DNA of 64,000 nucleotides. It comes from an uncultured Eubacteriales bacterium (GTDB lineage Bacteria; Bacillota; Clostridia; Christensenellales; CAG-138). This document shows positions 2,877-61,483 of the stretch, piece after piece. Position 1 is the stretch's first letter, and the number at the start of each line of letters is the position of its first letter. The stretch is from NCBI GenBank assembly GCA_902787375.1, contig CADAGD010000004.1, positions 28,018 to 92,017 of the forward strand. The letters run 5' to 3'. The notes below the pieces were generated by a model that saw only the letters and a program-made list of their open reading frames with translations, searched no databases and was not told the origin of the DNA. Both the position numbers and the translations under genes were made by a program.

Positions 2877-3749
2877 ATGAAGAAAGCATTGATTCTCATA
2901 CTCTCTGCGCTCGTGGTTGCTGCGGCAGCGGGCTGTAATGATCCCAAGGAGAGTACCAATACCGATCCCACGCAGCAGGCGGCGGAAACGGAGCAGCAAA
3001 CGCAGGCAACTGCGGATACAGCTAATACCAATACCGATAAGCATGATTATTCCGTATTGCGTACCTTCTTTGAGCAGAAGGATGAGGAAGGAATCACAAA
3101 CGGCAAAAAGTGCTTTCCCAACTACGATCCGGAAGATACCTCAACTTGGTATGACGGCAGCGACGGCTATGACAATTATGTGCGCTTTGATGCTGACGGC
3201 AATGTGACGCAGCTCAATCTCAAGCAGCCGGATGGCACAACGGCAGAGCTTGTCGGAAAGCTTGACCTGTCCGGGCTTGCTTCACTTGCGACAGTTGATA
3301 CATGGAATGTCATATTTGACGAAGTAAACGCGACGGAGCTTCCCATAGCGGCAAAGCAGAACAATGCCGTGATGCGTTTCCCCATGGTGCAGGGAGAAGC
3401 AAAGCTCTCCGGCGGGTTTGTCGAAAGGGTCTATATGCTTTCCGCATCCCACACTCTGTGTGATATAACGGGTGAAGCGGAAACGGAGCTGTCGGAGCTG
3501 CCTTCCTTCAAGCTTGATGTCAATGTTGATGGAGAGGGATATGCCGGTGTTTCTGCTTGGAGCGGCGGGAGCTGCTATGAGGTACACGCGGTGGCGCAGC
3601 CCATCGAGGGAAAGAGCTTTGTCGGTTGGTTCGATGCGCAGGGAAATCTCGTTTCCGAGGACGCCGATTATGAGCTTTTCGGTCAGAACAGCGGCAATAA
3701 TGCGGACGGCGCACATGCAAGCTTCGCTCTTACAGCAAGGTTTGAATAA
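2877..3749 (+). CDS. putative lipoprotein with C-terminal InlB-B-repeat-like segment
   Basis: GGAG RBS plus ATG at 2877. Signal peptide and lipobox (LVVAAAAG|C). C-terminal FVGWFDAQGNLV motif. The start is trimmed relative to the track ORF. Confidence 0.75.
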   Translation: MKKALILILSALVVAAAAGCNDPKESTNTDPTQQAAETEQQTQATADTANTNTDKHDYSVLRTFFEQKDEEGITNGKKCFPNYDPEDTSTWYDGSDGYDNYVRFDADGNVTQLNLKQPDGTTAELVGKLDLSGLASLATVDTWNVIFDEVNATELPIAAKQNNAVMRFPMVQGEAKLSGGFVERVYMLSASHTLCDITGEAETELSELPSFKLDVNVDGEGYAGVSAWSGGSCYEVHAVAQPIEGKSFVGWFDAQGNLVSEDADYELFGQNSGNNADGAHASFALTARFE

Positions 3750-3946
3750 AAAGCCTTGAATGTATTAAAGTATAGGTGATGATTGATAATCGAAACATCA
3801 AGCCGGGAGGGATGCCTCTCGGCTTTTTCTGAGTCGGTATATTGTAAAGAGCAATCCAAATGCGTTTGACTTTGGAATTGCTGTGTGATAAAATACATTG
3901 CGGATTTTTTCCGTTATGGATTTGAAAGGAGTTTTACCGTACTATA

Positions 3947-4906
3947 ATGAAGAAAGCACTTTGTACTGTCATAGCCGCCGCGCTTCTTGCAGGAGCTGTC
4001 GGATGCACGAATGACAATGAAATAATAGATATTGATTCCGAGCCTGTTCAGACTCAGACCGCTTTGACGACGGATGCGCCCGTGAGCGAAAGCCCGGAGC
4101 CTGTTTCCGCCGAGCCTACCGAGGTTGCGGAGATTACCGACGCGCCCGTGCCTACCGAGAGCCAGACAGCCGCGATCGTCACGCCCGCTCCTACGGCTGA
4201 GTCACAGCTTCCCGAAGGTCAGGTTCTGCGGCTCAATACCATGTCAACCGATTTGCAGGGGCTTTCCGAGGCGGAGGCGGAGGAATGGTTCTCCGACGCG
4301 GTATTCGTGGGCGACTCCATAATGCTCGGCTGGAAGAACTACAATAACAATAAACTCAGCACCAATCCTAAATTCTTCGGACAGACACGCTTCCTCTGCG
4401 AGGGCAGTTACGGCACGGGTCATGCGCTGGAACCTGTCACAGCAAACAGCCTGCATCCGCTATATCAGGGGCAGCAGCACCTGATTTGGGATTCCATCCA
4501 GATGATGGGAGCCAAGAAGGTTTTCATCTGCTTCGGACTTAACGACGTCGCCATTTACGGCGTTGACGGCACGGCTGAGAATTTCGGCAAGCTCTGCAAA
4601 AACATAACCGATAAGACACCCGACGCGAAGATTTACATAATCAGCGCGATGTACCTCATCGACGATTCCAACATGAAGGCGTTGACAAATGTCAATCTGC
4701 GTGCGCTCAACCAAAAGCTGCGTGATCTGTGCAATGAGAGGGGCTATGGTTTCGTTGATATAGCAAGCCACCTCGTCGGCGCGGACGGCTATCTCAAGGC
4801 TGAGTATTGCAGCGATAACTATGTGCATCAGACGGCTGCCGCTTATGACATTTGGGCGCAGGTTCTGCGCGGAGTGGCGGCAACCGCGATTAAATCAGGT
4901 AACTAA
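3947..4906 (+). CDS. SGNH/GDSL-family hydrolase or acyltransferase lipoprotein
   Basis: Lipobox LLAGAVG|C and a Pro/Thr/Glu linker. Block I motif FVGDSIMLGW, GLND block, C-terminal DNYVH. Confidence 0.8.
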   Translation: MKKALCTVIAAALLAGAVGCTNDNEIIDIDSEPVQTQTALTTDAPVSESPEPVSAEPTEVAEITDAPVPTESQTAAIVTPAPTAESQLPEGQVLRLNTMSTDLQGLSEAEAEEWFSDAVFVGDSIMLGWKNYNNNKLSTNPKFFGQTRFLCEGSYGTGHALEPVTANSLHPLYQGQQHLIWDSIQMMGAKKVFICFGLNDVAIYGVDGTAENFGKLCKNITDKTPDAKIYIISAMYLIDDSNMKALTNVNLRALNQKLRDLCNERGYGFVDIASHLVGADGYLKAEYCSDNYVHQTAAAYDIWAQVLRGVAATAIKSGN

Positions 4907-4933
4907 TTTTTTAAATACGAAAGGAATATTACT

Positions 4934-5419
4934 ATGAAAAGAATTGTATCCGTATTCACACTTGTTATGATGGCTCTTGCACTCATGCTCACAGCCTGCA
5001 GCGGCTCCTCCGAGAAGGAGAAGCAGGTTACAAAGTCGGCGGCTGAGATTTACACCGCTGTCAGCGAAGCGGGCAAGCTTGAAGCTATGACGGCTGTTCC
5101 CTCCCGCGATTTCAGCGACGTATATGGCATCGACGCCGCAATGATAGAGGATTCCGCATGGTATATGTCCGAGAATCCCTCCCTCAATGCCGATGAGGTC
5201 GCCATTTTCAAGCTCAGCAGCGAGGAGTATGCAAAGACGCTTGCCACGCTGCTCAAGGACAGGATTGCCCGTCAGCTTCAGGTAGCCGAAATATACAGCC
5301 CAGAAGAGGCTGCTAAGATAAAGGCTGCTGAGGTCGTAACCGTCGGCAACTGGGTTTACTACTGCATAGGAACCGAGAATGCCGCCATGATGAATGTTCT
5401 CAGGGCTGAGATCGGCTGA
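4934..5419 (+). CDS. DUF4358-like lipoprotein
   Basis: Lipobox LMLTA|C. The size and the motif NADEVAIFKL resemble the DUF4358 proteins commonly next to MBOAT genes in Clostridia (recall-based). Confidence 0.65.
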   Translation: MKRIVSVFTLVMMALALMLTACSGSSEKEKQVTKSAAEIYTAVSEAGKLEAMTAVPSRDFSDVYGIDAAMIEDSAWYMSENPSLNADEVAIFKLSSEEYAKTLATLLKDRIARQLQVAEIYSPEEAAKIKAAEVVTVGNWVYYCIGTENAAMMNVLRAEIG

Positions 5420-8128: not shown

Positions 8129-9778
<1,650 letters not shown>

Positions 9779-10507: not shown

Positions 10508-12391
10508 ATGCAAAGCGGAGATAAAAACAAAAACACGGGAAAAAAGCCGAGAACGCCCATCAATTATAAGCTTGTAAGCAGTATAATGAGGGGAACGCGG
10601 AGGTATTTTGTAATATCCGTGCTGGGACTTATTGCGGCGATAATCACGTCGTACATGATACCCATAGTAACGAGCTTCACAATAGACTATGTGCTGCTGC
10701 CATATGCCGAGGAGGGCTATGAGGCGGGGCGCACAATGGTTCCCGAAGCGGTGATGCAATGGATAGAGAGCATAGGCGGACGAGGCTTTTTGCTTGAGCA
10801 TCTCTACATAATGGGAATACTGCTCGTCATAATAACGGCGGTGAACGCGATAAGCACATTCCTGCGCAGAAGCTATGCGGCATATGCCGGAGAGGGAATA
10901 GCCAAGAACATCCGTGATGATCTTTACACGCATCTTGCGAATGTTCCGTATGATTATTTCAAGCATGTTTCGACGGGCGATATAGTACAAAGATGCACCT
11001 CGGATGTTGACGGTGTAAGGAGGTTCATTCAGAACCAGCTTCTTGAGATACTGAGAACCGTGCTGATGGTGATAACGGCGGCAGTCATAATGCTGAGGAT
11101 AGATTCGCTTCTGACGCTCTGGTCGGTCATGCTGATGCCGTTCCTCGCGCTGTCATCCTTCATCTATTTCAGAAAGGTCAAGAGCAGCTTTACCGAAGCC
11201 GATGAGGCTGAGGGTGCGCTTTCCGCCGCCATTCAGGAGAATCTGACGGGCGTAAGGGTCGTCAGGGCATTCGGACAGCAGAAGCGTGAGCTTGATAATT
11301 TCACCGAAAAGAACTCCGATCACAGGAAGAAGAATCTGCGCCTGACATACCTCATGGCATATTACTGGTCGGCTTCGGACGCATTCGGATACCTGCAAAT
11401 AATGATCTCCCTCTGCGTCGGCGCGTACTTTGTGATAACGGGGCGCATATCCGTCGGAGAGATGCTGGTATTCACCTCATATACGGCAATGCTGACATGG
11501 CCAGTGCGCCAGCTCGGAAGGATACTTGCCGATCTGGGCAAAGCATCGGTATCCCTCGGCAGGATAGATGAGATAATGTCGGCTCCGCTTGAGGAGGAGC
11601 CGGGCAAGGCGCTTAGTCCCACAATAACGGGAGAGGTGGAGTTCAGGCATGTCGGTTTCAAATACGCGGACAGCACGGTTCCGGTGCTTTCCGATATAAG
11701 CTTTACGGCGAAGAAGGGAGAGACAATCGCCATACTCGGCTCTACGGGAAGCGGCAAATCGACGCTTGTTCAGCTCATGCAAAGGCTCTACTGCGCGACC
11801 GAGGGTGAGATACTGATAGACGGCGTGAACATAAACGACATTGAGCGGCATCATCTGCGCAAAGGGATAAGCATAGTGCTTCAGGAGCCGTTCCTTTATT
11901 CAAGAACGATTATGGAAAATATCCGAATAGTCGATCCTGATATGCCGGAGGAGGCGGTCTATGAGGCGGCGCGTGTTGCCGCCATACACGACGTCGTCAA
12001 GGAGTTTGAGAAGGGCTATGATACGGTCGTGGGCGAGCGCGGTGTTACGCTTTCGGGCGGACAAAAACAGCGCGTGGCAATCGCGCGTATGCTGACACAG
12101 AACGCGCCCATAATCATACTCGACGATTCGATGTCGGCGGTCGATACCGAAACGGACGCGGCGATCCGCGAAGCATTGTCAGGAAGCAGGGGCAGCCGTA
12201 CAACATTCATAATATCTCACCGCATAACAACTCTGCGTGAGGCGGATAAGATACTCGTGCTTGAACACGGACGCCTTGTTCAGCAGGGGACGCATGATGA
12301 GCTTATGAGGACGGACGGACTTTACAGAAGAATAGCGGATATTCAGAACATGCTCGGCGATGAGCTTATATCGGAAGGAGGTGAAGCCTGA
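10508..12391 (+). CDS. ABC exporter, fused permease/ATPase, heterodimer subunit 1
   Basis: AAAGGAGG RBS plus ATG at 10508 (trimmed from the track start). Six-TM domain, Walker A GSTGSGKST, signature LSGGQKQR, Walker B IIILDD. Confidence 0.9.
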   Translation: MQSGDKNKNTGKKPRTPINYKLVSSIMRGTRRYFVISVLGLIAAIITSYMIPIVTSFTIDYVLLPYAEEGYEAGRTMVPEAVMQWIESIGGRGFLLEHLYIMGILLVIITAVNAISTFLRRSYAAYAGEGIAKNIRDDLYTHLANVPYDYFKHVSTGDIVQRCTSDVDGVRRFIQNQLLEILRTVLMVITAAVIMLRIDSLLTLWSVMLMPFLALSSFIYFRKVKSSFTEADEAEGALSAAIQENLTGVRVVRAFGQQKRELDNFTEKNSDHRKKNLRLTYLMAYYWSASDAFGYLQIMISLCVGAYFVITGRISVGEMLVFTSYTAMLTWPVRQLGRILADLGKASVSLGRIDEIMSAPLEEEPGKALSPTITGEVEFRHVGFKYADSTVPVLSDISFTAKKGETIAILGSTGSGKSTLVQLMQRLYCATEGEILIDGVNINDIERHHLRKGISIVLQEPFLYSRTIMENIRIVDPDMPEEAVYEAARVAAIHDVVKEFEKGYDTVVGERGVTLSGGQKQRVAIARMLTQNAPIIILDDSMSAVDTETDAAIREALSGSRGSRTTFIISHRITTLREADKILVLEHGRLVQQGTHDELMRTDGLYRRIADIQNMLGDELISEGGEA

Positions 12392-17586: not shown

Positions 17587-17658
17587 AAATATGCGGGATA
17601 AAAACCTGCCGAAAAAAATAAGTCAACGCTTCAAAAAAACATCAGGGAGGGCAATCAA

Positions 17659-17889
17659 ATGGAAAAAGAAAACGAACGCCTCACCCGGACGGTACTGGCG
17701 GGGAAACCCGCCGACCGTCCATGGGAGGGGTGCATAAACTCCGTGGTATACCGCGTACCGAGGGGCGTACCTGTTGAGCTGCCGGAGTTTATTGCGGAGC
17801 ATATAAGAAGGACGGAGGCTGAGCGGGAGCAGGCAGAGAGGAGGGCGGAGCAGTATTCAAAGGCGGCAAGCAGGCTCATGAGGGATTGA
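17659..17889 (+). CDS. hypothetical protein (76 aa), first gene of the SOS-box cassette
   Basis: GGGAGGG RBS. Arg/Glu-rich helical C-terminus. Confidence 0.6.
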   Translation: MEKENERLTRTVLAGKPADRPWEGCINSVVYRVPRGVPVELPEFIAEHIRRTEAEREQAERRAEQYSKAASRLMRD

Positions 17890-17934
17890 CGGGCGCGGGA
17901 GGCGTGACACGCTGAATGTATAAGGAGGATTTTA

Positions 17935-18471
17935 ATGACGCTTAATGACATTATAGTATCGGCGCTTGCCCAGCTTGACAGGGGGCATGACGCGCAGACG
18001 ATGGACACATTCAGGGCAAGGCTTACGGACTTTGCCAATGACGCGCAATCGGATATAGCGCGCGCCATAAGCTTTACAAGGACGGATACCGTTCAGCCTT
18101 CCAATGGAATTGTGGAGCTTACACAGCTTGAAAGGGATTGCATAAAGGTGACAAAGACCATGCAATTAGGTCACGAGGTCAAATTCATGCGCGGGGACAC
18201 GGGAGTTATCGCGCTTCCGTATAACTCATCCGCAGAGATAACATACATATGTGAGCCTAAGCCGCTCGTTGCGTCAACGGATGTCAGCGAGCTTCCGGCA
18301 TATACGCACGGACTTATAGTCAGCTATGTTGTCGGAAGGGAACGAATGTCCGGCGACACATCCACTCAGAGGGGAGCCAACATATACCTTTCAATGTACG
18401 AGGCTGCAAAAAACAAGCTCCGTCCGCACTATGGCGATTCGGAAAGCTACAGGATACAGAACAGGTACTGA
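17935..18471 (+). CDS. phage virion-associated protein-like (178 aa), possible head-tail/tail accessory factor
   Basis: AAGGAGG RBS. Tight spacing with neighbours. Size and position resemble small podovirus adaptor proteins (recall-based, weak). Confidence 0.6.
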   Translation: MTLNDIIVSALAQLDRGHDAQTMDTFRARLTDFANDAQSDIARAISFTRTDTVQPSNGIVELTQLERDCIKVTKTMQLGHEVKFMRGDTGVIALPYNSSAEITYICEPKPLVASTDVSELPAYTHGLIVSYVVGRERMSGDTSTQRGANIYLSMYEAAKNKLRPHYGDSESYRIQNRY

Positions 18472-18480
18472 GGAGAAAAT

Positions 18481-19908
18481 ATGGCAAGCTATACTTACAG
18501 AATCGAGGGCTTTGCCGGCATCGACCAGTCGAGGGACGAGAGCTACATATCCCCGTCATACTCGCCCGATGCGATGAACATGGATACCTCGGACGGCAAT
18601 CTGGCTGTATGCAAGGGCTTTACGAAGCTGCTGCCCGCTCCCGTGCCTGCGGAAAGCACGAGCGGAATAGACTGCGTTTGCTTCTTCAGGGACGCCTCAA
18701 GGGACATCCCGATGGCAATTTCGGGAGGCTATATTTACACATATGATGAAGAGGATGAGGAGTGGACGCAGGCATATGAATACTCCCTCGTGCTTGCCAC
18801 AAGGCATTACTCGGTGCTTATGACTAGGATTGGCACGACGGATACCATGCTGATAGCCGACGGAGCGAATCAAATACTCAAATTTGACGGAACCGACTTT
18901 TCGGCGTTCGGCTCCTCCGAGGGATGCTCCGACATAGCGGTGAGCTGCATCGCCATGTACCGAGGCAGGCTTTTTGCGGCGGGAGATTATCAGAACCCGA
19001 ACAGACTGTATTATTCCAAGCTCCCCGGAGGGGACAGAACAATAGAGGATTGGGGCTATGACGCCGACTCGCCCGCCGTCGAGGGCGGACATGTGGAGAT
19101 AGGAACCACGAGCGGCGATCCGATAACCGCGATATGCGCCATGAGCAATCAGCTTCTCATATTCAAAAAGAACTCGATTTACAGGCTCATAGGCGACAGA
19201 CCGGGCAATTTCACGATTGAGCTGATAGTTAGCGACTCCACGTTTGTCACCGATACCGCAACGGCTGTATACCGCGACGTCATCTACTATGTGACGGAGG
19301 GGGGACTGCATTGCTTCAACGGCGTTGACGCGGCTCCGATGCCGGATGCCCGCCTCATCAAGCGCATAATGGATGGCGCGGACACAAGCGATACCCGCGT
19401 CGCGGTAGTGGGGGACAGGCTCTATTTCACGATCAAGAAGGACGATTATACAAGGCTCATCGAGTATGACCTCAAGACAAGGCATTATATGCAGTACGGA
19501 GGCTTCAAGCTTTACGATATAAACAGCCTTGACGGAAAGCTGATCATCACCACCGACAGCAGGTATCTTGAAAAATGGGGCGAGGGAAACAGCTTCGACG
19601 GTCAGCCCATAGAGGCTTACTGGACTACACCGCTGACCGACCTCGGAGAAAAATCCGCAGTCAAATCCATGCGCGAGCTGTTCCTGCGAGGCAGAGCCGA
19701 TTCGCCGCTCATAGTCGATATGAATGTGGGCGGCAAGCGCGATACATACCGCGTACTGCTTCCCGAAACCCTTGACGACGTGCTTGAGGTTCCGCTTAAA
19801 AATGAGGGGCGAACCATGAATCTCAAAATCAGCAATGAGAACGGCGGCGGGTTCAGCATTGTCGGAGGAATGGAGATAGAGATGAACGTCAGGCGCAGAA
19901 CCCGCTGA
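18481..19908 (+). CDS. phage structural protein-like (475 aa), beta-propeller-like repeats
   Basis: Follows the 178-aa ORF after a 9-nt gap. Recurrent G-x-L-Y/F strand motifs (GRLFAAGD, IYRLIGD, GGLHCFNG, DRLYFTI). Size resembles the P22 gp10-type stabilisation protein (recall-based). Confidence 0.65.
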   Translation: MASYTYRIEGFAGIDQSRDESYISPSYSPDAMNMDTSDGNLAVCKGFTKLLPAPVPAESTSGIDCVCFFRDASRDIPMAISGGYIYTYDEEDEEWTQAYEYSLVLATRHYSVLMTRIGTTDTMLIADGANQILKFDGTDFSAFGSSEGCSDIAVSCIAMYRGRLFAAGDYQNPNRLYYSKLPGGDRTIEDWGYDADSPAVEGGHVEIGTTSGDPITAICAMSNQLLIFKKNSIYRLIGDRPGNFTIELIVSDSTFVTDTATAVYRDVIYYVTEGGLHCFNGVDAAPMPDARLIKRIMDGADTSDTRVAVVGDRLYFTIKKDDYTRLIEYDLKTRHYMQYGGFKLYDINSLDGKLIITTDSRYLEKWGEGNSFDGQPIEAYWTTPLTDLGEKSAVKSMRELFLRGRADSPLIVDMNVGGKRDTYRVLLPETLDDVLEVPLKNEGRTMNLKISNENGGGFSIVGGMEIEMNVRRRTR

Positions 19909-20326
19909 GCCGCATTTTGGAGAAGCGATTAACTCAGTTAAGCTCCAAAGTGATAAATCTGCGACCAAAGGGAGCCACGTGGGCGTGGAGTGTTAAGGAA
20001 TCGCAACGGTGTTGCGATTTTAACGGAACGCCGAAGCTGCTGTGCAGAGAGGGAAGCGTACGCGCCGCACCGAACTTGGTTAAGCAATTACTCAATGCAA
20101 CCCTCAGGGCGAACCCAGTCGCCCGTTATCAACCTTTTTGACCTTTCACCGGATGGTCAAAATCGTGAAACGACCGGTTGATAACCTCCTGCGAGAAATA
20201 TCCGTATAATTATTGAAGAAAGGCATAGCAGAACAGTTGAGATTGATTGAAATCTATACGCTTCTAATTTGGCAGTTGCCAAAAGCGTTAATTGATCATT
20301 GTATACTTTTGAGGAGGTATTGAGCT
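19909..20326 (+). ncRNA. candidate structured non-coding region (class unknown)
   Basis: 418 nt with no convincing ORF and at least five perfect hairpins (see findings). Strand assignment is tentative. Confidence 0.3.
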
Positions 20327-20536
20327 TTGGAAATGCGTTCGCTTTATAATGTCAGTCTTCCCACCGAGAGGGACGACAATGACGACAGGAAGACCCATGA
20401 CGATTGGGTTAAAAAGAACGAAAGCTGTTTGAATATGAATTTCGGTCTTATATCCGATAAGCTCTATGAACTGGAGCTGAGAATGGCTGTGCTTGAAGCC
20501 GCCGTTGAAAATATAGGCTCAAGCGGTTCAAGCTGA
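20327..20536 (+). CDS. hypothetical small protein (69 aa), predicted coiled-coil C-half
   Basis: GAGGAGG RBS 9 nt upstream of a TTG start. Terminator follows. Confidence 0.5.
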   Translation: MEMRSLYNVSLPTERDDNDDRKTHDDWVKKNESCLNMNFGLISDKLYELELRMAVLEAAVENIGSSGSS

Positions 20537-20560
20537 TAACAGGAATATTTGATGCAAAAT

Positions 20561-20610
20561 CGGGACGTCGTGTGGAGCCCTTTAAGCTCATATGCGGCGT
20601 CCCGTTTGTT
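20561..20610 (+). terminator. intrinsic terminator
   Basis: CGGGACGTCG...CGGCGTCCCG stem followed by TTTGTT. Confidence 0.55.
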
Positions 20611-20679
20611 ATGTTTGTTGATTAAATGTCATATAGCATACTGCGACCAAAAAAGACTAAATAAAGTTTGTGATAACTA

Positions 20680-20708
20680 TTGAAAAGAATGGTAAAAAGC
20701 AGTATAAT
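20680..20708 (+). promoter_or_regulatory. orphan near-consensus sigma-A promoter
   Basis: TTGAAA-N17-TATAAT. No SD-preceded ORF in the following 370 nt. Confidence 0.55.
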
Positions 20709-20793
20709 AATAAATGAAAGCTGAACTCTGCCGTATCATTTAAATGATATGGTCAAACCTCTGACAAACCCCAAATGCGCCGGAAATACCTGC

Positions 20794-20942
20794 CTTCCCC
20801 TCACAGGGGAAGGGGGACCGCCGCCTCAGCGGTGGTGGATGAGGTGGCAAAAAACTCAATAAGCACTTAGTTTTTTTGATAACGCCATTGTTTCCACCTC
20901 ATCAGTCAGACTTCGTCTGACAGCTTCCCCTCAAAGGGGAAG
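20794..20942. repeat. inverted pair of about 55-nt hairpin modules
   Basis: CTTCCCCT-CAC-AGGGGAAG + GC hairpin + GATGAGGTGG, then a 46-bp spacer, then CCACCTCATC + GTCAGAC-TTC-GTCTGAC + CTTCCCCT-CAA-AGGGGAAG. Confidence 0.75.
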
Positions 20943-21077
20943 CCAAGAAAAGCAGGCTTTGTCCGTAGTCTGAGCCTGAGTTACCAAAACTCAGGCTTTG
21001 AAATACTTGATGTCTCTCATGCTGCCGTGGTATAATGCTCACAGTAAAGGACGGTTTTACAGCAAAGGAGGAACAAT

Positions 21078-22073
21078 ATGAAAAAAACAAACACGATTAT
21101 AGCATCATCAATACTTGTGGCGGCAATGGCTTTCTCGTCCTGCGTTCCCGCAAAGACGGAGGCTGACGATGTAACTGAATCCATCAATCCAACGGAAGTC
21201 ACCGCCCTTGCATCCCCCGAAACAAACAATACAGAGTCTGCCGATTTGCCTGATTCGACCGAGTGCATTGAGACTTCCGGTGAAAAAGTGCTGCTCATAG
21301 ATAACGGTACTCTTGGAGAAAGTGAGTTTGATTACAGCTATGATATTACCAAGACCATAATTGAAACTGTTGATGAAAGCAAGGTTGGAACCGAAAAGAC
21401 TATTGAGTTTATGGGCAAGCAATATAAGCTGTTATATGAAAGGACTCGCTATGGCGTTTTGCTTAGCATTAAAGTTGATGATTATAAAATAGTAGAAGCT
21501 GAAGGCGAGTATGCCGATGAAATTGGTTATATTGATTTATTGCCCGATGGTACAATTTATTCAATTATAGCAAATCCTATATTCTCGATAGATATTCAGA
21601 GCTGCAAAAGCGGAGAGGACGTTAGGGCTTTAGTTGAAGAAAGCCTGAAGGATGAAATTGATTTCAGCAAATATGAACACTACTCAATAGTCGAGCCGGA
21701 CGAAGAAGCAGCCTTTTACTTCTATTCTATAAGTTGGAATAACAGTATTGACAATATAACGCTGTGTGATTCTGCGGCAGTCATGGTAGATACTGAAGGC
21801 GGTATTAGGGGTATACGCATGAAGGATAGGGTAGATTTTGGCTATGACACACTTCCCGATGATCTGAGCCTTGACGATTATCTCCCTCAGATAGAGAGCA
21901 AGCTAAAGAAAATCTATGGTGACGCATTTGTCGATTATGAGGTCAAATCCTCATTTGTGGGAAACATCGACGGTAATCTCTGCATAATCTGCGATGTTGA
22001 TGCCGACTACAACGATAAGCAAAACGAAAAAACCTATGATCAGATCGAGCTGGCGGTATTCATAAATCAATAA
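21078..22073 (+). CDS. lipoprotein, family A copy 1
   Basis: AAAGGAGG RBS. Signal peptide and lipobox AFSS|C. Paralogous to 23067-24032 along its full length. Confidence 0.8.
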   Translation: MKKTNTIIASSILVAAMAFSSCVPAKTEADDVTESINPTEVTALASPETNNTESADLPDSTECIETSGEKVLLIDNGTLGESEFDYSYDITKTIIETVDESKVGTEKTIEFMGKQYKLLYERTRYGVLLSIKVDDYKIVEAEGEYADEIGYIDLLPDGTIYSIIANPIFSIDIQSCKSGEDVRALVEESLKDEIDFSKYEHYSIVEPDEEAAFYFYSISWNNSIDNITLCDSAAVMVDTEGGIRGIRMKDRVDFGYDTLPDDLSLDDYLPQIESKLKKIYGDAFVDYEVKSSFVGNIDGNLCIICDVDADYNDKQNEKTYDQIELAVFINQ

Positions 22074-22192
22074 AATACACGGCATTAAAGCCTGAATTAT
22101 CAGAAGTTCAGATTTTGAAATACTTGATGTTTCTATGATATAATACTTGTGGGAATCAAAAGATTTACAATAAAAAAAGATGGAGGTGCTTT

Positions 22193-23070
22193 GTGAAACG
22201 TGCAGCCGTAATTCTATTCTGCTTTATTATGCTTTCGTTATTTGGATGTACAGTCAGTCCTAAAACATCCCTTGCTGTACTTGAGGTCAATAAACTGCCG
22301 CTATCCGATTCGGATTTGAGGATCAGCGAGTTGGAGATAAACCAAAACGCGGGTTCGGATTTGATAAGCAGGTCAGCCATGGTATTTGAAACCTCGGCAG
22401 CAGACGTGGATGAAGAATACTTAGATTCATTCAAAAAAAGTATTGGCTTTGGAGAATGTACCATGGCCGATGATGACGAAGCAATGAGTATTACGGACGA
22501 TAAGGGCAATTTCCTTACGGTGTTCAAGGCTTCGGGAACAATAACCTATTACAGCACTCCGGAGGGAGGGGATACACCCGTTGATGAATCCTCTGAGCTG
22601 CTTTCTGATGAAGAATACATGAGAATCGCAAGCGACTGGCTGAGCCATACGGGACTGCTTACGGATGAATACACCGAGAAGGATGCCGTCGTTGCCGACA
22701 ACGGTTTTGTAACAAAGACAGATGATGACGGTACTTCGCAGTTGACGTTACATTGGATGGACGGATAAAGAATGTTGTAAAGATTCAGAGGGAGTATAAA
22801 CCACTTGCGGAATATCCTCTGCAAAGCATAGAGAAAGCAATTCGTAAACTTAAGGACGGAGAGGGCGTGTTCTATGTTTCCGACAATGCAGGACAAAAAG
22901 GTATTATTGAGAATGTGAAGCTGGCATATTATAACACGGATGTTATGGACGATTGCCCGTATCTGCTCCCTGTTTATATATTTGAAGGAACAAGCGAAGG
23001 CTCTCAGTTTACGGCAATGGTCTATGCGCTTGAGGAGGATTGCTATACTGTAACAGGAGGCACAACGTGA
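22193..23070 (+). pseudogene. lipoprotein gene split by a +1 frameshift (ORFs 22193-22768 and 22753-23070)
   Basis: The first ORF has a lipobox (SLFG|C). The second ORF has no SD and only a TTG start. The frames overlap at ACGTTACATTGGATGG, where one extra T would fuse them. Confidence 0.5.
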
Positions 23071-24032
23071 AAAAAACAAATTCAATTTTAGCATCATCAA
23101 TGCTTGCGGCGGCAATAGCTTTCTCGTCCTGCGCTCCGAGTACAGAAAACACACCGGCAGACACTATTGCTCCGAGTGCTTCACAGGGGATTGTGACGAC
23201 AGCTCCCGAAGAAACCGAAAAAAACGCTTCGCTGACGGACGGTCAGGTATTGCTGATAAACAACGGACAATGCGGGGAGTCTGGTATTGAATATGTCTTT
23301 GATTATGAAGATATGATTATGACGGTCGATGAGAACAAGGTGGGAACCGAGAAAACGGTTGAGTTCTTGGGCAAGCAATACGGGCTTGTTTATAATCAGA
23401 CAGTCACATATGTTACTCACAATGCAACGGTTGACGAGTATTGCTTAACCGGGGATATGAAGCTTAACCGTTACGGAAATGAAAACCATATACGTCTATT
23501 GCCCGATGATTCGGTTTTTTCAATCTCATTAGACCCGATATTGAAGATTGATATAGCGGAGAATGAAAGCGTTGAGGATATCCGGGCTGATGTTGAAAAA
23601 GCCCTGCAAAATGAGATAGATTTTGATAAGTTTGAGTTCTGCAATGTTACAGAGCCGAATGAGGAAGCGGGCTACGACTACTATACGTTGACATGGTTCA
23701 ATAAGAAAAATGATATTCCTATGTCTGATACGGTCAGGATATATATGCTGTACGATGGTGATATAACAACCATTTGGATGAATAATAAGGTTGACCTCGG
23801 TCTTAATTCGGTTCGTGGTGATTTCGACATTGAGAGTTATCTGCCGCATATAGAGAAAAAGCTGCGAGAGATTTTCAAGGAAGCCTATGTAAGCTATGAG
23901 ATCAAGTCCTCAATAATCGGAAATATCGACGGTAAACCCTGTATAGTTTGTGACATCAGCACCGTGTATAATGATGGAAATGGTGATGATTTGCACGATC
24001 TGATTGAAATGGCAATATTCATAAACCAATGA
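23067..24032 (+). CDS. lipoprotein, family A copy 2
   Basis: GTG start at 23067 (VKKTNSILASS...), lipobox AFSS|C; paralog of 21078-22073. Confidence 0.8.
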   Translation: MKKTNSILASSMLAAAIAFSSCAPSTENTPADTIAPSASQGIVTTAPEETEKNASLTDGQVLLINNGQCGESGIEYVFDYEDMIMTVDENKVGTEKTVEFLGKQYGLVYNQTVTYVTHNATVDEYCLTGDMKLNRYGNENHIRLLPDDSVFSISLDPILKIDIAENESVEDIRADVEKALQNEIDFDKFEFCNVTEPNEEAGYDYYTLTWFNKKNDIPMSDTVRIYMLYDGDITTIWMNNKVDLGLNSVRGDFDIESYLPHIEKKLREIFKEAYVSYEIKSSIIGNIDGKPCIVCDISTVYNDGNGDDLHDLIEMAIFINQ

Positions 24033-46858: not shown

Positions 46859-46916
46859 TGTAAACATGGTATTAGGTAGTGATTAACTCAGCAAAGCTCT
46901 GAGAGTGCTGAGGAGT

Positions 46917-48368
46917 TTATTTCTTTATACCGAAAGCCTTCTGTTCCTTGAGTACGACGTCATGTGCGCCGCCCTCGACAATGGAGGTCGGGGAAACAAG
47001 GGTGAGCCTTGCGGTATTCCTGAGCTGTTCTATCGTGAGCGAGCCGCAGTTGCACATTGTGGAACGAACCTTGGCGAGTGTCACGATTATATTGTCATGA
47101 AGTGAACCGGCATAGGGAACATAAGAATCGACGCCTTCCTCGAAGCTGAGCTTTGAACCGCCGCCCATATCGTAACGCTGCCAGTTGCGGGCGCGAGCGG
47201 AGCCCTCGCCCCAGTATTCCTTCATGTAGGTTCCGCCGACCATGACCTTGTTTGTGGGGGACTCGTCAAATCTTGCGAAGTAGCGTCCGAGCATACAGAA
47301 ATCGGCCCCCATCGCAAGCGCGAGGGTTATATGGTAGTCCATTACGATTCCGCCGTCGGCGCAGATGGGAACGTAAATGCCGGTCTTTTCAAAGTATTCG
47401 TCACGGGCTTTGGCGACTTCCATGACGGCGGTTGCCTGACCGCGTCCGATACCCTTTGTTTCGCGGGTTATGCAGATGGAGTCACGGTCAACGACGTTGC
47501 CCGCGCCGCACTTGACCTTATCGCCGTATTTTTCACGGATAAAGGCAAGGGTTTTTGCCTGCCATGCTGTATAGCCCTCGGAGGAGTCTATACATAGCAC
47601 GTCAACACCGGCGTCAACAAGTGCGGGAACACGCTCGGCGTAATCGCGGGAGTTGATGCCCGCGCCGACAACATAACGCTTGTTGCCGTCGAGCAGCTCC
47701 ATGGGGTTTTCCTTATGAACATCGTAATCCTTGCGGAAGACAAAGGCAACAAGATTGCCGTCGTCGTCGATTATGGGAAGCGAGTTGAGCTTGTGATCCC
47801 AGATAATGTCATTGGCTTCCTTGAGCGAAACGCCTTCCTTCGCGGTGACAAGACGCTCGATGGGAGTCATGAAGCTTTTGACCTTCGCATCATGGGATAT
47901 GCGGCTGATGCGATAGTCACGGCTTGTGACAACGCCCAGGAGCTTGCCGGTAGCCGAGCCGTCATGGGTTACGGCGACCGTGGAATGACCGGTCTTTTCC
48001 TTCAGAGCAATGAGATCCTCAACGGTCTGGTCGGGTGTTACGCAGGAGTCGCTTATTGAGAAGCCCGCCTTGTAAGCCTTGACCTTCTTGACCATATCGG
48101 CCTGCTTTTCGATACTCTGGGAGCCGTATATGAATGAGACTCCGCCCTCACGCGCAAGCGCGACGGCAAGGGTATCGTTGGAAACGGACTGCATTATAGC
48201 CGATACAAGAGGTATGTTGAGGGATATAGGAGCATCCTCGCCCTTCCTGAATTTGACGAGGGGAGTCTTTAGACTTGTGTTCTGTGGGGTACATTCCTCA
48301 GAGGTGTAATTGGGTATCAGCAGATATTCCCCAAACGTATGGGAGGGTTCGTCATAGATAAACGGCAT
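46917..48368 (-). CDS. guaB: IMP dehydrogenase (with tandem CBS domains), apparently lacking a core segment
   Basis: IMPDH N-terminus, CBS pair, SICITRE catalytic-Cys loop, CADGGI, MLGRYFA. The region between GNVVD and SICITRE is only 2 aa (see findings). Confidence 0.88.
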
Positions 48369-49149: not shown

Positions 49150-49290
49150 TTCGCCTCCGGAGGGCTGCGCCGCTCAATGCGTATTATTAATACAATGGTA
49201 ATACCTTTCATAAGGATACCACTTTCGACGGATTATGTAAAGAGAAAACCGAAAAATATATTAAATTCCACTCAAGACATATGCAGATAA

Positions 49291-49382
49291 CGATTAACTA
49301 ACATCGTTTCTTAACACTACACGCCCACACGGCTCTCTTTGGTCGCAAATTCAACACCCTCATTGCGTTGCTGAGTTAATCG
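49291..49382. repeat. 92-bp element bounded by perfect 9-bp inverted repeats (CGATTAACT / AGTTAATCG)
   Basis: Located 18 nt downstream of the rsmA stop. Its core matches 19960-19998 at about 34/39 by eye (in reverse orientation). Confidence 0.65.
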
Positions 49383-49400
49383 GCGTTTACCTATATCACG

Positions 49401-61396: not shown

Positions 61397-61483
61397 GCCG
61401 GTGTGATGGAATTGGCAGACGTGACGGACTCAAAATCCGTTGGTAGCAATACCGTGTGGGTTCGAGTCCCACCACCGGCACCA
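61397..61483 (+). tRNA. tRNA-Leu (anticodon CAA), encoded CCA
   Basis: Acceptor GCCGGTG/CACCGGC, anticodon arm ACGGA-CTCAAAA-TCCGT, long variable arm, GGTTCGAGTCC T-loop, A-CCA 3' end. Confidence 0.93.

Follow-up and report, generated by a model that had tools for sequence, protein, structure and literature searches.

What occupies the 418 nt that separate two neighboring genes in an uncultured Eubacteriales bacterium, where perfect hairpins crowd together and no protein seems to be encoded? The stretch in question spans positions 19909-20326 of a 64,000-nt piece of contig CADAGD010000004.1 (hereafter the window, whose positions are given on the plus strand unless otherwise indicated), between a gene for a 475-aa protein and a 69-aa open reading frame (ORF). 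An initial annotation, made from the letters of the window, had suggested that this region might be a novel phage-associated noncoding RNA (ncRNA), an attachment (att) or packaging-type site, or a decayed mobile element. Our analysis indicates that it is probably a copy of an uncatalogued, structured, nonautonomous repeat of about 385 bases, similar to MITEs (miniature inverted-repeat transposable elements), that belongs to uncultured rumen and gut Clostridia. A candidate phage ncRNA is in this way replaced by a defined repeat family for which a covariance model (R1) was built, two structural subtypes were distinguished, and the ends were mapped.

An interrupted spacer and a dispersed repeat

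In eight related species from a genome collection (55-74% protein identity), the spacer between the 475-aa gene and the small ORF measures 5-33 nt, versus 418 nt in the window, and in five further species the same spacer is 14-20 nt long. Read against these orthologous spacers, positions 19921-20306 show up as an insertion between these two genes, whose spacer formerly measured about 26 nt; taking the element out would leave a spacer of that size, as in the relatives. Strains of the same species, which we compared where their flanks are at least 97% identical to the window, carry three alleles of 256 nt (L015, L021, L022, and L024), 418 nt (the window, L017, and L018), and 548 nt (L016). The left arm (to about 19975) and the right arm (from 20186) are common to all three, while the middles are swapped. 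As many as 9 of 16 same-species contigs end inside the region, as assemblies typically do at repeated sequence.

Copies of the element were found both within the window and far beyond it. The 11-mer GATTAACTCAG occurs exactly three times in the window (at 19927 and 46881 on the plus strand, and at 49381 on the minus strand), versus about 0.03 occurrences expected, and each occurrence belongs to a copy. Besides the copy under study (copy A), there is copy B (49290-49392, minus strand), a short, internally deleted version (CGATTAAC ... core 5' half ... GTTAATCG) lying between ksgA and a GntR-family gene, which matches 19926-20000 with 78% identity (blastn E 1.6e-10; nhmmer E 1.8e-31). Copy C (46868-46915, plus strand; nhmmer E 0.0016) is a fragment of the 5' module only, oriented opposite to guaB (IMPDH) and directly adjoining its stop codon. 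A paralogous copy D follows the 69-aa ORF in strain L024.

Locus L048 was found by translating the conserved core and searching a protein collection for mis-called ORFs. Its segment 1911-2287 (minus strand), which sits at an unrelated locus, between a radical-SAM/SPASM gene and a helix-turn-helix gene, is 87% identical over 384 nt to window 19927-20307. The unit copied to another locus is thus the whole window element (about 19921-20306). The same locus contains a short-type copy (4911-5019) that interrupts a DUF1016/YhcG gene, leaving an N-terminal ORF of 77 aa and a remainder of 303 aa. In another species, L040:6803-7011 (minus strand), 186 nt upstream of pfk, is 70% identical to window 19984-20204, and a homolog is also present in L042. 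We built R1, the covariance model of the short D-type core, after a profile, and D-type cores scored 75-119 bits in L001 and L038 (both by gcvPB), L039, L040/L041 (after spoIID), and L048. The core in L039 lies between a 477-aa gene and a small ORF, that is, in the same neighborhood as in the window.

The relatives occupy at least 10 distinct unrelated sites in at least five species and range in size from about 110 nt (core) to about 385 nt (the expanded form, or W subtype, to which the window copy belongs). They neighbor pfk, spoIID, gcvPB, gntR, guaB, and radical-SAM genes, one being inside the DUF1016 gene, and are seen in either orientation relative to the neighboring genes. The family is therefore small, noncoding, and multicopy at nonorthologous sites, as MITEs are. 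No match to the region was found by blastn among 50,697 phage records, while pattern scans of viral contig collections returned nothing, or chance-level matches only, and those of JGI metagenome contigs only two chance matches, in coding sequence. At the sensitivity of exact patterns, the family is thus absent from those collections. Five more homologous clusters (L051-L056) had no further copies nearby. As for the phage-associated ncRNA proposed initially, its association with phages falls away, since copies lie beside genes such as pfk, spoIID, and gcvPB and none was found in viral contig collections, whereas its structured nature is borne out by the covariation described below.

Public protein sets contain three ORFs (P0121, P0122, and P0123) that pass through the repeat core in one frame (...RPKGAARVSA.APRQ...), P0122 being another ORF that runs into a core. 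These are annotation artefacts made by the element.

The conserved fold

The D-type core folds as a three-way junction, with two GC-rich hairpins, P2 and P3, closed by a stem P1 in which GGGAGC pairs with GCUCCU. The conserved order is a 5' GCGACCRAAGGGAGCC segment, P2 and P3 within P1, and a 3' tail (CUGCGAGAMAUAUCC). Its single-stranded parts are invariant and read GCGACCRAAGG on the 5' side, GAAYCUCG...CAAGC in the junction, and UGCGAGAMAUAUCC in the tail. When five copies are aligned with MAFFT, 94.5% of the cells are paired and five pairs show double changes, and when eight copies are fitted to the model, double changes are seen in 8 of 18 pairs. For the five-copy alignment, control structures slid along the core had at most one double change, and none of 500 shuffles reached the observed values.

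When set beside this core, the window copy is recognizable as the expanded W subtype, with two extra hairpin domains (19975-20068 and 20107-20185). With the window as the sole source, we delineated the W stems and then checked each against the L040 homolog, in which 41 of 46 pairs are kept, eight of them via double changes, and five are broken (slid controls again gave at most one double change). The stem at 19999-20019 keeps eight of nine pairs, with two double changes, that at 20037-20047 keeps four of four, with one, and that at 20107-20124 keeps five of six, with one. In the nested hairpin of the second domain, the outer stem (20125-20134/20176-20185) keeps 7 of 10 pairs, with three double changes, the inner stem (20136-20143/20155-20162) keeps all eight and is invariant, and the small stem (20163-20166/20170-20173) keeps four of four, with one double change. 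The hairpins singled out in the initial annotation are thus conserved features of the W subtype. In the species of the window, this subtype is without the 3' arm of P3 and is missed by R1, and the same form is found at a second locus in L048.

Because these changes are compensatory, the alignments between copies show that the stems are maintained by selection. The initial annotation had regarded a lack of homologs with compensatory changes as grounds for dropping its proposal; such homologs exist, both in L040 and among the core copies. Its description of a decayed mobile element was right in essence, since the dispersed repeat family argues for a mobile element, but "decayed" is too strong for hairpins that are kept across species by compensatory changes. 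The structure support sits in the core and the expansion domains, not in the 5' module, for which copies A and B gave none (RNAalifold energy of merely -7.6 kcal/mol; single-sequence z of -1.6 and -0.3).

How unusual are the hairpins in the region itself? The perfect inverted repeats listed in the initial annotation are all present, that is, TTAAC/GTTAA (19929-19941), AATCGCAAC/GTTGCGATT (19999-20019), GGGCGA/TCGCCC (20107-20124), and GTTATCAACC/GGTTGATAAC (20125-20185), the last enclosing TTTTGACC/GGTCAAAA at 20136-20162. Counting maximal perfect inverted repeats (arms of at least 6 nt, loops of 3-45 nt) against a background of 636 segments of 418 nt from the same 64 kb, we found nine in the region versus a mean of 4.0±2.0. 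The sum of their arms is 64 versus a mean of 25.9±13.2, a value equalled or passed by 8 of the 636 segments and matched by none of 300 shuffles. The minimum free energy of the plus strand is -131 kcal/mol (z=-3.4 versus dinucleotide shuffles, with a similar value for the minus strand). In a GC-corrected comparison with 305 native segments, the folding z is -1.27, and 26 segments are equal or better. Since the adjacent intergenic gap (20537-21077) is just as stem-rich and folds better (z about -3.0), the claim that the density of stems far exceeds that of neighboring intergenic regions fails. The hairpin density is nonrandom and real, though not unique to the region.

The ORFs on the annotation track, already suspected to be spurious, are indeed so. 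No ORF in 19909-20326 has a match in Pfam, gene callers predict no gene in the region in any of the 16 same-species contigs, and the ORFs are removed or replaced in strain alleles. A coding reading was rejected on these grounds and because indels between copies break the frame, not being multiples of three; of the differences between copies A and B, three of five are synonymous in one frame. A scan of 19909-20326 revealed no σ70-like promoter on the plus strand and no terminator on either strand, and none of the listed stems is trailed by at least five T, as an intrinsic terminator or attenuator would be. Finally, the impression gained by eye that the region does not match tmRNA, RNase P, SRP, 6S, T-box, or common riboswitch cores is upheld by Rfam 15, whose families include riboswitches, ribozymes, group I/II introns, HEARO, OLE, ROOL, GOLLD, and Clostridiales-1. 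At the gathering score, cmscan of the window returned a tRNA at 61397 as the sole match, at E≤10 there were merely chance snoRNA and CRISPR-DR matches of at most 18 bits in 19700-20700, and the family members in L001, L016, L024, L038, L039, L040, and L048 yielded nothing relevant.

Probable mobility, rival explanations, and known analogues

Some core copies are flanked by long direct duplications. In L039, a 78-nt duplication (11485-11562 / 11709-11784) comprises the ribosome-binding site and 17 codons of the small ORF and is 94% identical, while in L038 a 223-nt duplication (3552-3774 / 3961-4183) comprises the final 74 gcvPB codons and a handful of further bases and is 98% identical. A decayed, 60+34 nt version of the event in L038 is seen in L001 (8944-9003 / 9151-9210), and no target duplication was detected for L048D, L040b, and L040rc. 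Because the intact gene in L038 and L039 is the copy 3' of the element, the duplication restores the interrupted gene; in L001, too, the gene on that side is intact. These long duplications may reflect the insertion mechanism or later rescue events. A diversity-generating retroelement was considered as the origin of the gcvPB duplicates and rejected; their five mismatches are not adenine-specific on either strand, which argues against it, and no reverse transcriptase gene was called nearby. Two features of this family stand out, a branched core kept across species by compensatory changes and long target duplications that restore an interrupted gene. If the long duplications reflect insertion, the chemistry of mobilization would be unusual for bacteria.

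How might such an element behave at the locus in the window? A folded single strand would matter to it, either for recognition during mobilization or as transcript structure. The element is probably cotranscribed with the operon, since the scan detected neither a promoter nor a terminator within it. It would uncouple the two genes while leaving the downstream ribosome-binding site intact, and would then become a substrate for strain-level rearrangements at this locus. Elements of this sort break metagenome assemblies, create spurious ORFs, and reshape the operons of uncultured rumen Clostridia.

Several observations weigh against a MITE-like repeat. We found no transposase, recombinase, or reverse transcriptase with matching ends, nor a transposase gene in any fetched locus, so mobility is deduced from distribution only. 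Copies B and C are almost invariant among strains, copy B being fixed in 10 of 10 and copy C likewise in those compared, so that, apart from the allelic rearrangements, nothing points directly to recent movement in the species of the window. With a length of only 7 nt, the inverted terminal repeats are also confined to copies from the species of the window, core-only copies elsewhere being without them. The flanks of the window copy, TTTTGGAG (19915-19922) and TTTTGAGGAG (20307-20316), may represent an imperfect target duplication, but the putative duplication is short as well as imperfect, whereas those elsewhere, at 78-223 nt, are unlike those of known bacterial MITEs. To our knowledge, none has been described as making duplications that long. 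In addition, six of the eight informative copies are codirectional with the downstream gene, an arrangement that a transcribed functional RNA could show as well, and the counts of G·U versus A·C cells (5 versus 2 and 1 versus 1) discriminate neither the folding strand nor RNA from DNA.

Some of these points would be expected if the family were instead a multicopy functional ncRNA (a small RNA acting in trans, or a leader or processing element acting in cis), with its three-way-junction fold kept by the host for regulation, and the window copy regulated or stabilized the message of the 69-aa ORF and the variable genes that follow. Covarying stems combined with invariant single-stranded segments are typical of functional RNA architecture, the downstream gene runs in the same direction as most copies (A, D, B, L039, L040rc, and L048W), terminator-like hairpins with U tracts come after three copies (D_L024, L040b, and L038), and the near invariance of copy B in 10 strains fits as well. 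We nevertheless find this explanation, the chief rival, unlikely. The neighbors are functionally incoherent (pfk, gntR, DUF1016, spoIID, gcvPB, a small ORF), copies interrupt ORFs and are flanked by target duplications, and those in L001 and L038 are antisense to the neighboring gene. A riboswitch or cis-regulatory leader in particular was rejected, given this incoherence and copies that are antisense or inside genes. Moreover, 13 related species have no element at the orthologous site, the plus strand of the region showed no promoter-like site, and the window subtype, which is without the 3' arm of P3 and missed by the core model, has yet been copied to a second locus.

A role in exchanging the variable genes downstream, with the region acting as a recombination site (att, cassette junction, or packaging) of the phage-like cluster, would be in keeping with genes after the 69-aa ORF that differ between strains, with the second copy (D) of the unit after that ORF in L024, and with a second structured repeat, element X, that lies on either side of the ORF depending on the strain. 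This explanation is highly improbable, because there is no recombinase and the breakpoints of the variable genes are downstream of the region; beyond the lack of any gene for an integrase, invertase, or terminase in or beside the cluster, the same element is found at many loci unrelated to the cluster, and the cluster is syntenic in many Clostridia and not an integrated prophage. For the same reasons, neither the att or packaging site proposed in the initial annotation nor an island attachment site or integron attC is supported. We give still less credence, next to none, to the possibility that palindromes clustered by chance or that a protein-coding gene decayed here, without any conserved structure. 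The GC content of 19909-20185 is coding-like (about 52%) and the folding energy is unremarkable versus native segments, with the z of -1.27 given above, but the stem content is reached by none of the 300 shuffles, there are eight compensatory double changes in a homolog that is just 70% identical, no protein family matches, and indels between copies are not multiples of three. It is the covariation that excludes this explanation. The conserved three-way-junction core could conceivably serve as the active RNA in a bacterial mobile element of a new kind, either a SINE-like small RNA copied back into DNA by a trans-acting reverse transcriptase or a guide-type RNA for a recombinase. This we regard as a long shot, although either route, if true, could yield long and variable target duplications (78 and 223 nt) that rebuild the end of the interrupted gene, something no bacterial MITE is known to do.

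Among described repeats, the bcr1 class would be the closest analogue, Correia, ERIC, RUP, and BOX being looser ones. The bcr1 elements of the Bacillus cereus group are small, mobile, transcribed repeats of about 155 bp, with two stem-loops in a cruciform-like arrangement and 5-bp direct repeats on their flanks, whose RNA fold is kept by compensatory changes (Delihas 2011, PMC3184786). As described, both families consist of small, noncoding, dispersed Firmicute repeats with a multihairpin fold and a distribution that differs between related strains, and structural stability is lost in some copies of each. Judging by the aligned copies, our family also has the hallmark pairing of a mobile distribution and compensatory changes that keep the fold. 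Unlike bcr1, the element here ranges from about 110 to about 385 nt, with a three-way junction and optional domains, and some copies have no target duplication, whereas in others it is either short and imperfect or 78-223 nt in length.

Correia/NEMIS, ERIC, RUP, and BOX share with the element an intergenic location, a size of 100-400 nt, multiple copies, a position between operon genes, and an RNA fold when cotranscribed (general knowledge and PMC3184786). A modular architecture with internally deleted variants is another common trait, comparable to the A, B, and C modules of BOX. Classical bacterial MITEs have long inverted terminal repeats (26 bp in Correia) and fixed short duplications (TA). 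In contrast, the terminal repeats of our element are 7 nt long and restricted to one lineage, and its conserved part is an internal three-way junction found across species.

REP/BIME and REPIN sequences are mobilized by RAYT transposases (IS200/IS605-like Y1), and REPs are single palindromes of 20-40 nt. The element resembles REP/BIME in having GC-rich hairpins beside a short conserved motif, the 3' tail of the core ending in (A/C)ATATC(C/G), but differs in its size (about 110 to 385 nt) and branched fold, and no RAYT or TnpA gene was seen in any locus. A link between the element and REP/RAYT is speculative. Separately, L040 contains REP/BIME-like arrays (3850-3914 and 11736-11799 on the plus strand, 12116-12220 on the minus strand) in which (A/C)ATATCG comes after every one of a series of short GC-rich hairpins; both orientations are represented. 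Their motif resembles the invariant core 3' tail GAGACATATCC, and the window is devoid of such "hairpin + CATATCG" arrays.

Rickettsia palindromic elements (RPEs) are inserted in frame and translated within the host protein. Like them, the element is a small structured repeat able to insert within protein genes, as the L048 copy in DUF1016 illustrates; unlike with RPEs, the host ORF is split, truncated, or restored by a flanking duplication. The element stands apart from everything compared in its cross-species branched core, optional expansion domains, very short terminal repeats, and target duplications that are either long or absent.

Organization of the window copy and its neighborhood

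The window copy can be divided into consecutive parts, all on the plus strand. The left flank (19909-19920) is a leftover of the original short spacer, similarity to L048 beginning only at 19927. It is followed by the 5' end module (19921-19958), in which AGAAGC-GATTAACTCAG precedes a small hairpin region. This module, common to copies B, C, D_L024, and L048W, includes the left short inverted terminal repeat GATTAAC (19927-19933), which pairs with the right repeat. The conserved 5' core CTGCGACCAAAGGGAGCC (19959-19976), present in all family members from at least five species, includes the 5' strand of P1, GGGAG (19970-19974), a stem that covaries from A-U to U-A. Expansion domain 1 (19975-20068), with hairpins at 19975-19988, 19999-20019, and 20037-20047, has homologs in L040:6795-7125 (minus strand) and L048W. 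It ends with GCGTA and the remnant of the P3 5' arm, ACGCGCCGC (20060-20068), the 3' arm being missing from the W subtype; P3 is intact in strain L016. The junction segment GAACTTGGTTAAGCAATTACTC... (20069-20106) is homologous to the single-stranded J3/1 of the core (GAAYCTCG...CAAGC).

Expansion domain 2 (20107-20185) consists of the GGGCGA/TCGCCC hairpin (20107-20124) and then the nested hairpin described above, and is absent in the 256-nt and 548-nt strain alleles. The conserved 3' core CTCCTGCGAGAAATATCC (20186-20203), which combines the 3' strand of P1 (CTCCT) and the invariant tail, is found in every strain allele and in every copy from other species. It leads into the 3' arm (20204-20306, ending ...GTTAATTGATCATTGTATAC), which is common to L048W, L048D, D_L024, and all strain alleles, similarity stopping at 20306/20307. 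Within this arm, the right short inverted terminal repeat reads GTTAAT(TG)ATC (20287-20297), and is an exact GTTAATC in copies B, A_short, and L048D. The ends of the element are 5' (A/G)GTAAAYGCY-GATTAAMTCAG and 3' GTTAATC..ATTGTMTAC, with GATTAAC/GTTAATC as the 7-nt inverted terminal repeat. The right flank (20307-20326) belongs to the original spacer and carries a ribosome-binding site, GAGGAGG (20311-20317).

This ribosome-binding site serves the conserved 69-aa ORF (MEMRSLY...), which starts with TTG at 20327 and is present in all relatives. On the other side, the region is preceded by genes for a 178-aa protein with a weak SU10-adaptor match and for the 475-aa protein, which matches phrog_3287 (a "virion structural protein" family) and whose TGA stop is at 19906-19908. 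The set of four genes (76, 178, 475, and 69 aa; 17591-20536) has hundreds of homologs in Clostridia, some homolog clusters exceeding 1000 sequences, and a syntenic chromosomal position adjoining hydrogenase genes in many of these bacteria. It is therefore a conserved chromosomal module and not an ordinary, integrated prophage. No capsid, portal, or terminase genes were found in the module, and no integrase, recombinase, invertase, or terminase in the gene cluster or its flanks.

The genes 3' of the 69-aa ORF vary between strains, being a 331-aa gene, a 758-aa CBM96/Flg_new gene, or a 610-aa Metallophos gene (window 20755-22877; L015, L016, L017, and L020). The breakpoints of these variable genes (20755-21017 and 22089-22877) are downstream of the region, none being inside it. 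Tandem paralogs of 331, 320, and 321 aa have N-terminal and other segments in common, and 21066-21148 resembles 23055-23137. In related species, a Macro-domain gene takes the place of the variable genes. At 22735/22736, the window is missing 85 nt that are present in every other same-species contig (L016, L017, L018, and L020). This loss frameshifts the 320-aa gene into two ORFs (22193-22768 and 22753-23070), L018 matching the window at 100% identity in every other respect.

Element X, the second structured repeat, measures 208 nt, has several hairpins, lies after the 69-aa ORF in the window (20767-20973, plus strand), and is 94% identical to L016:3095-3302. It accounts for the 418-nt stretch with the most stable fold in the window and has no match in Rfam. 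While element X is found 3' of the 69-aa ORF in most strains, it is 5' of the ORF in L016 and L013, where its insertion point, after 19997, falls within the region under study, and it constitutes the extra piece inside the 548-nt allele. A homolog with compensated hairpins is present at the same relative position in another species (L040:11800-12000).

Elsewhere in the genome, in the IMPDH-PBP spacer (L031; window equivalent about 46780), one strain has 243 extra nt, bounded by the inverted ends GGCTCTACTCCC/GGGAGTAGAAC and accompanied by the 10-nt direct repeat CTTTACATTT. This insertion is a classical MITE, polymorphic within the species, and indicates that small mobile elements are active in the lineage of the window. 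The adjoining guaB gene for IMPDH (46917-48368, minus strand) encodes 483 aa in the window versus 503 aa in 10 of 10 other strains, an in-frame 60-nt deletion having removed EGFMFLAEAGADFVKVGIGGG immediately before the conserved SICITR segment. The shortened IMPDH may be an assembly artefact or a defective allele.

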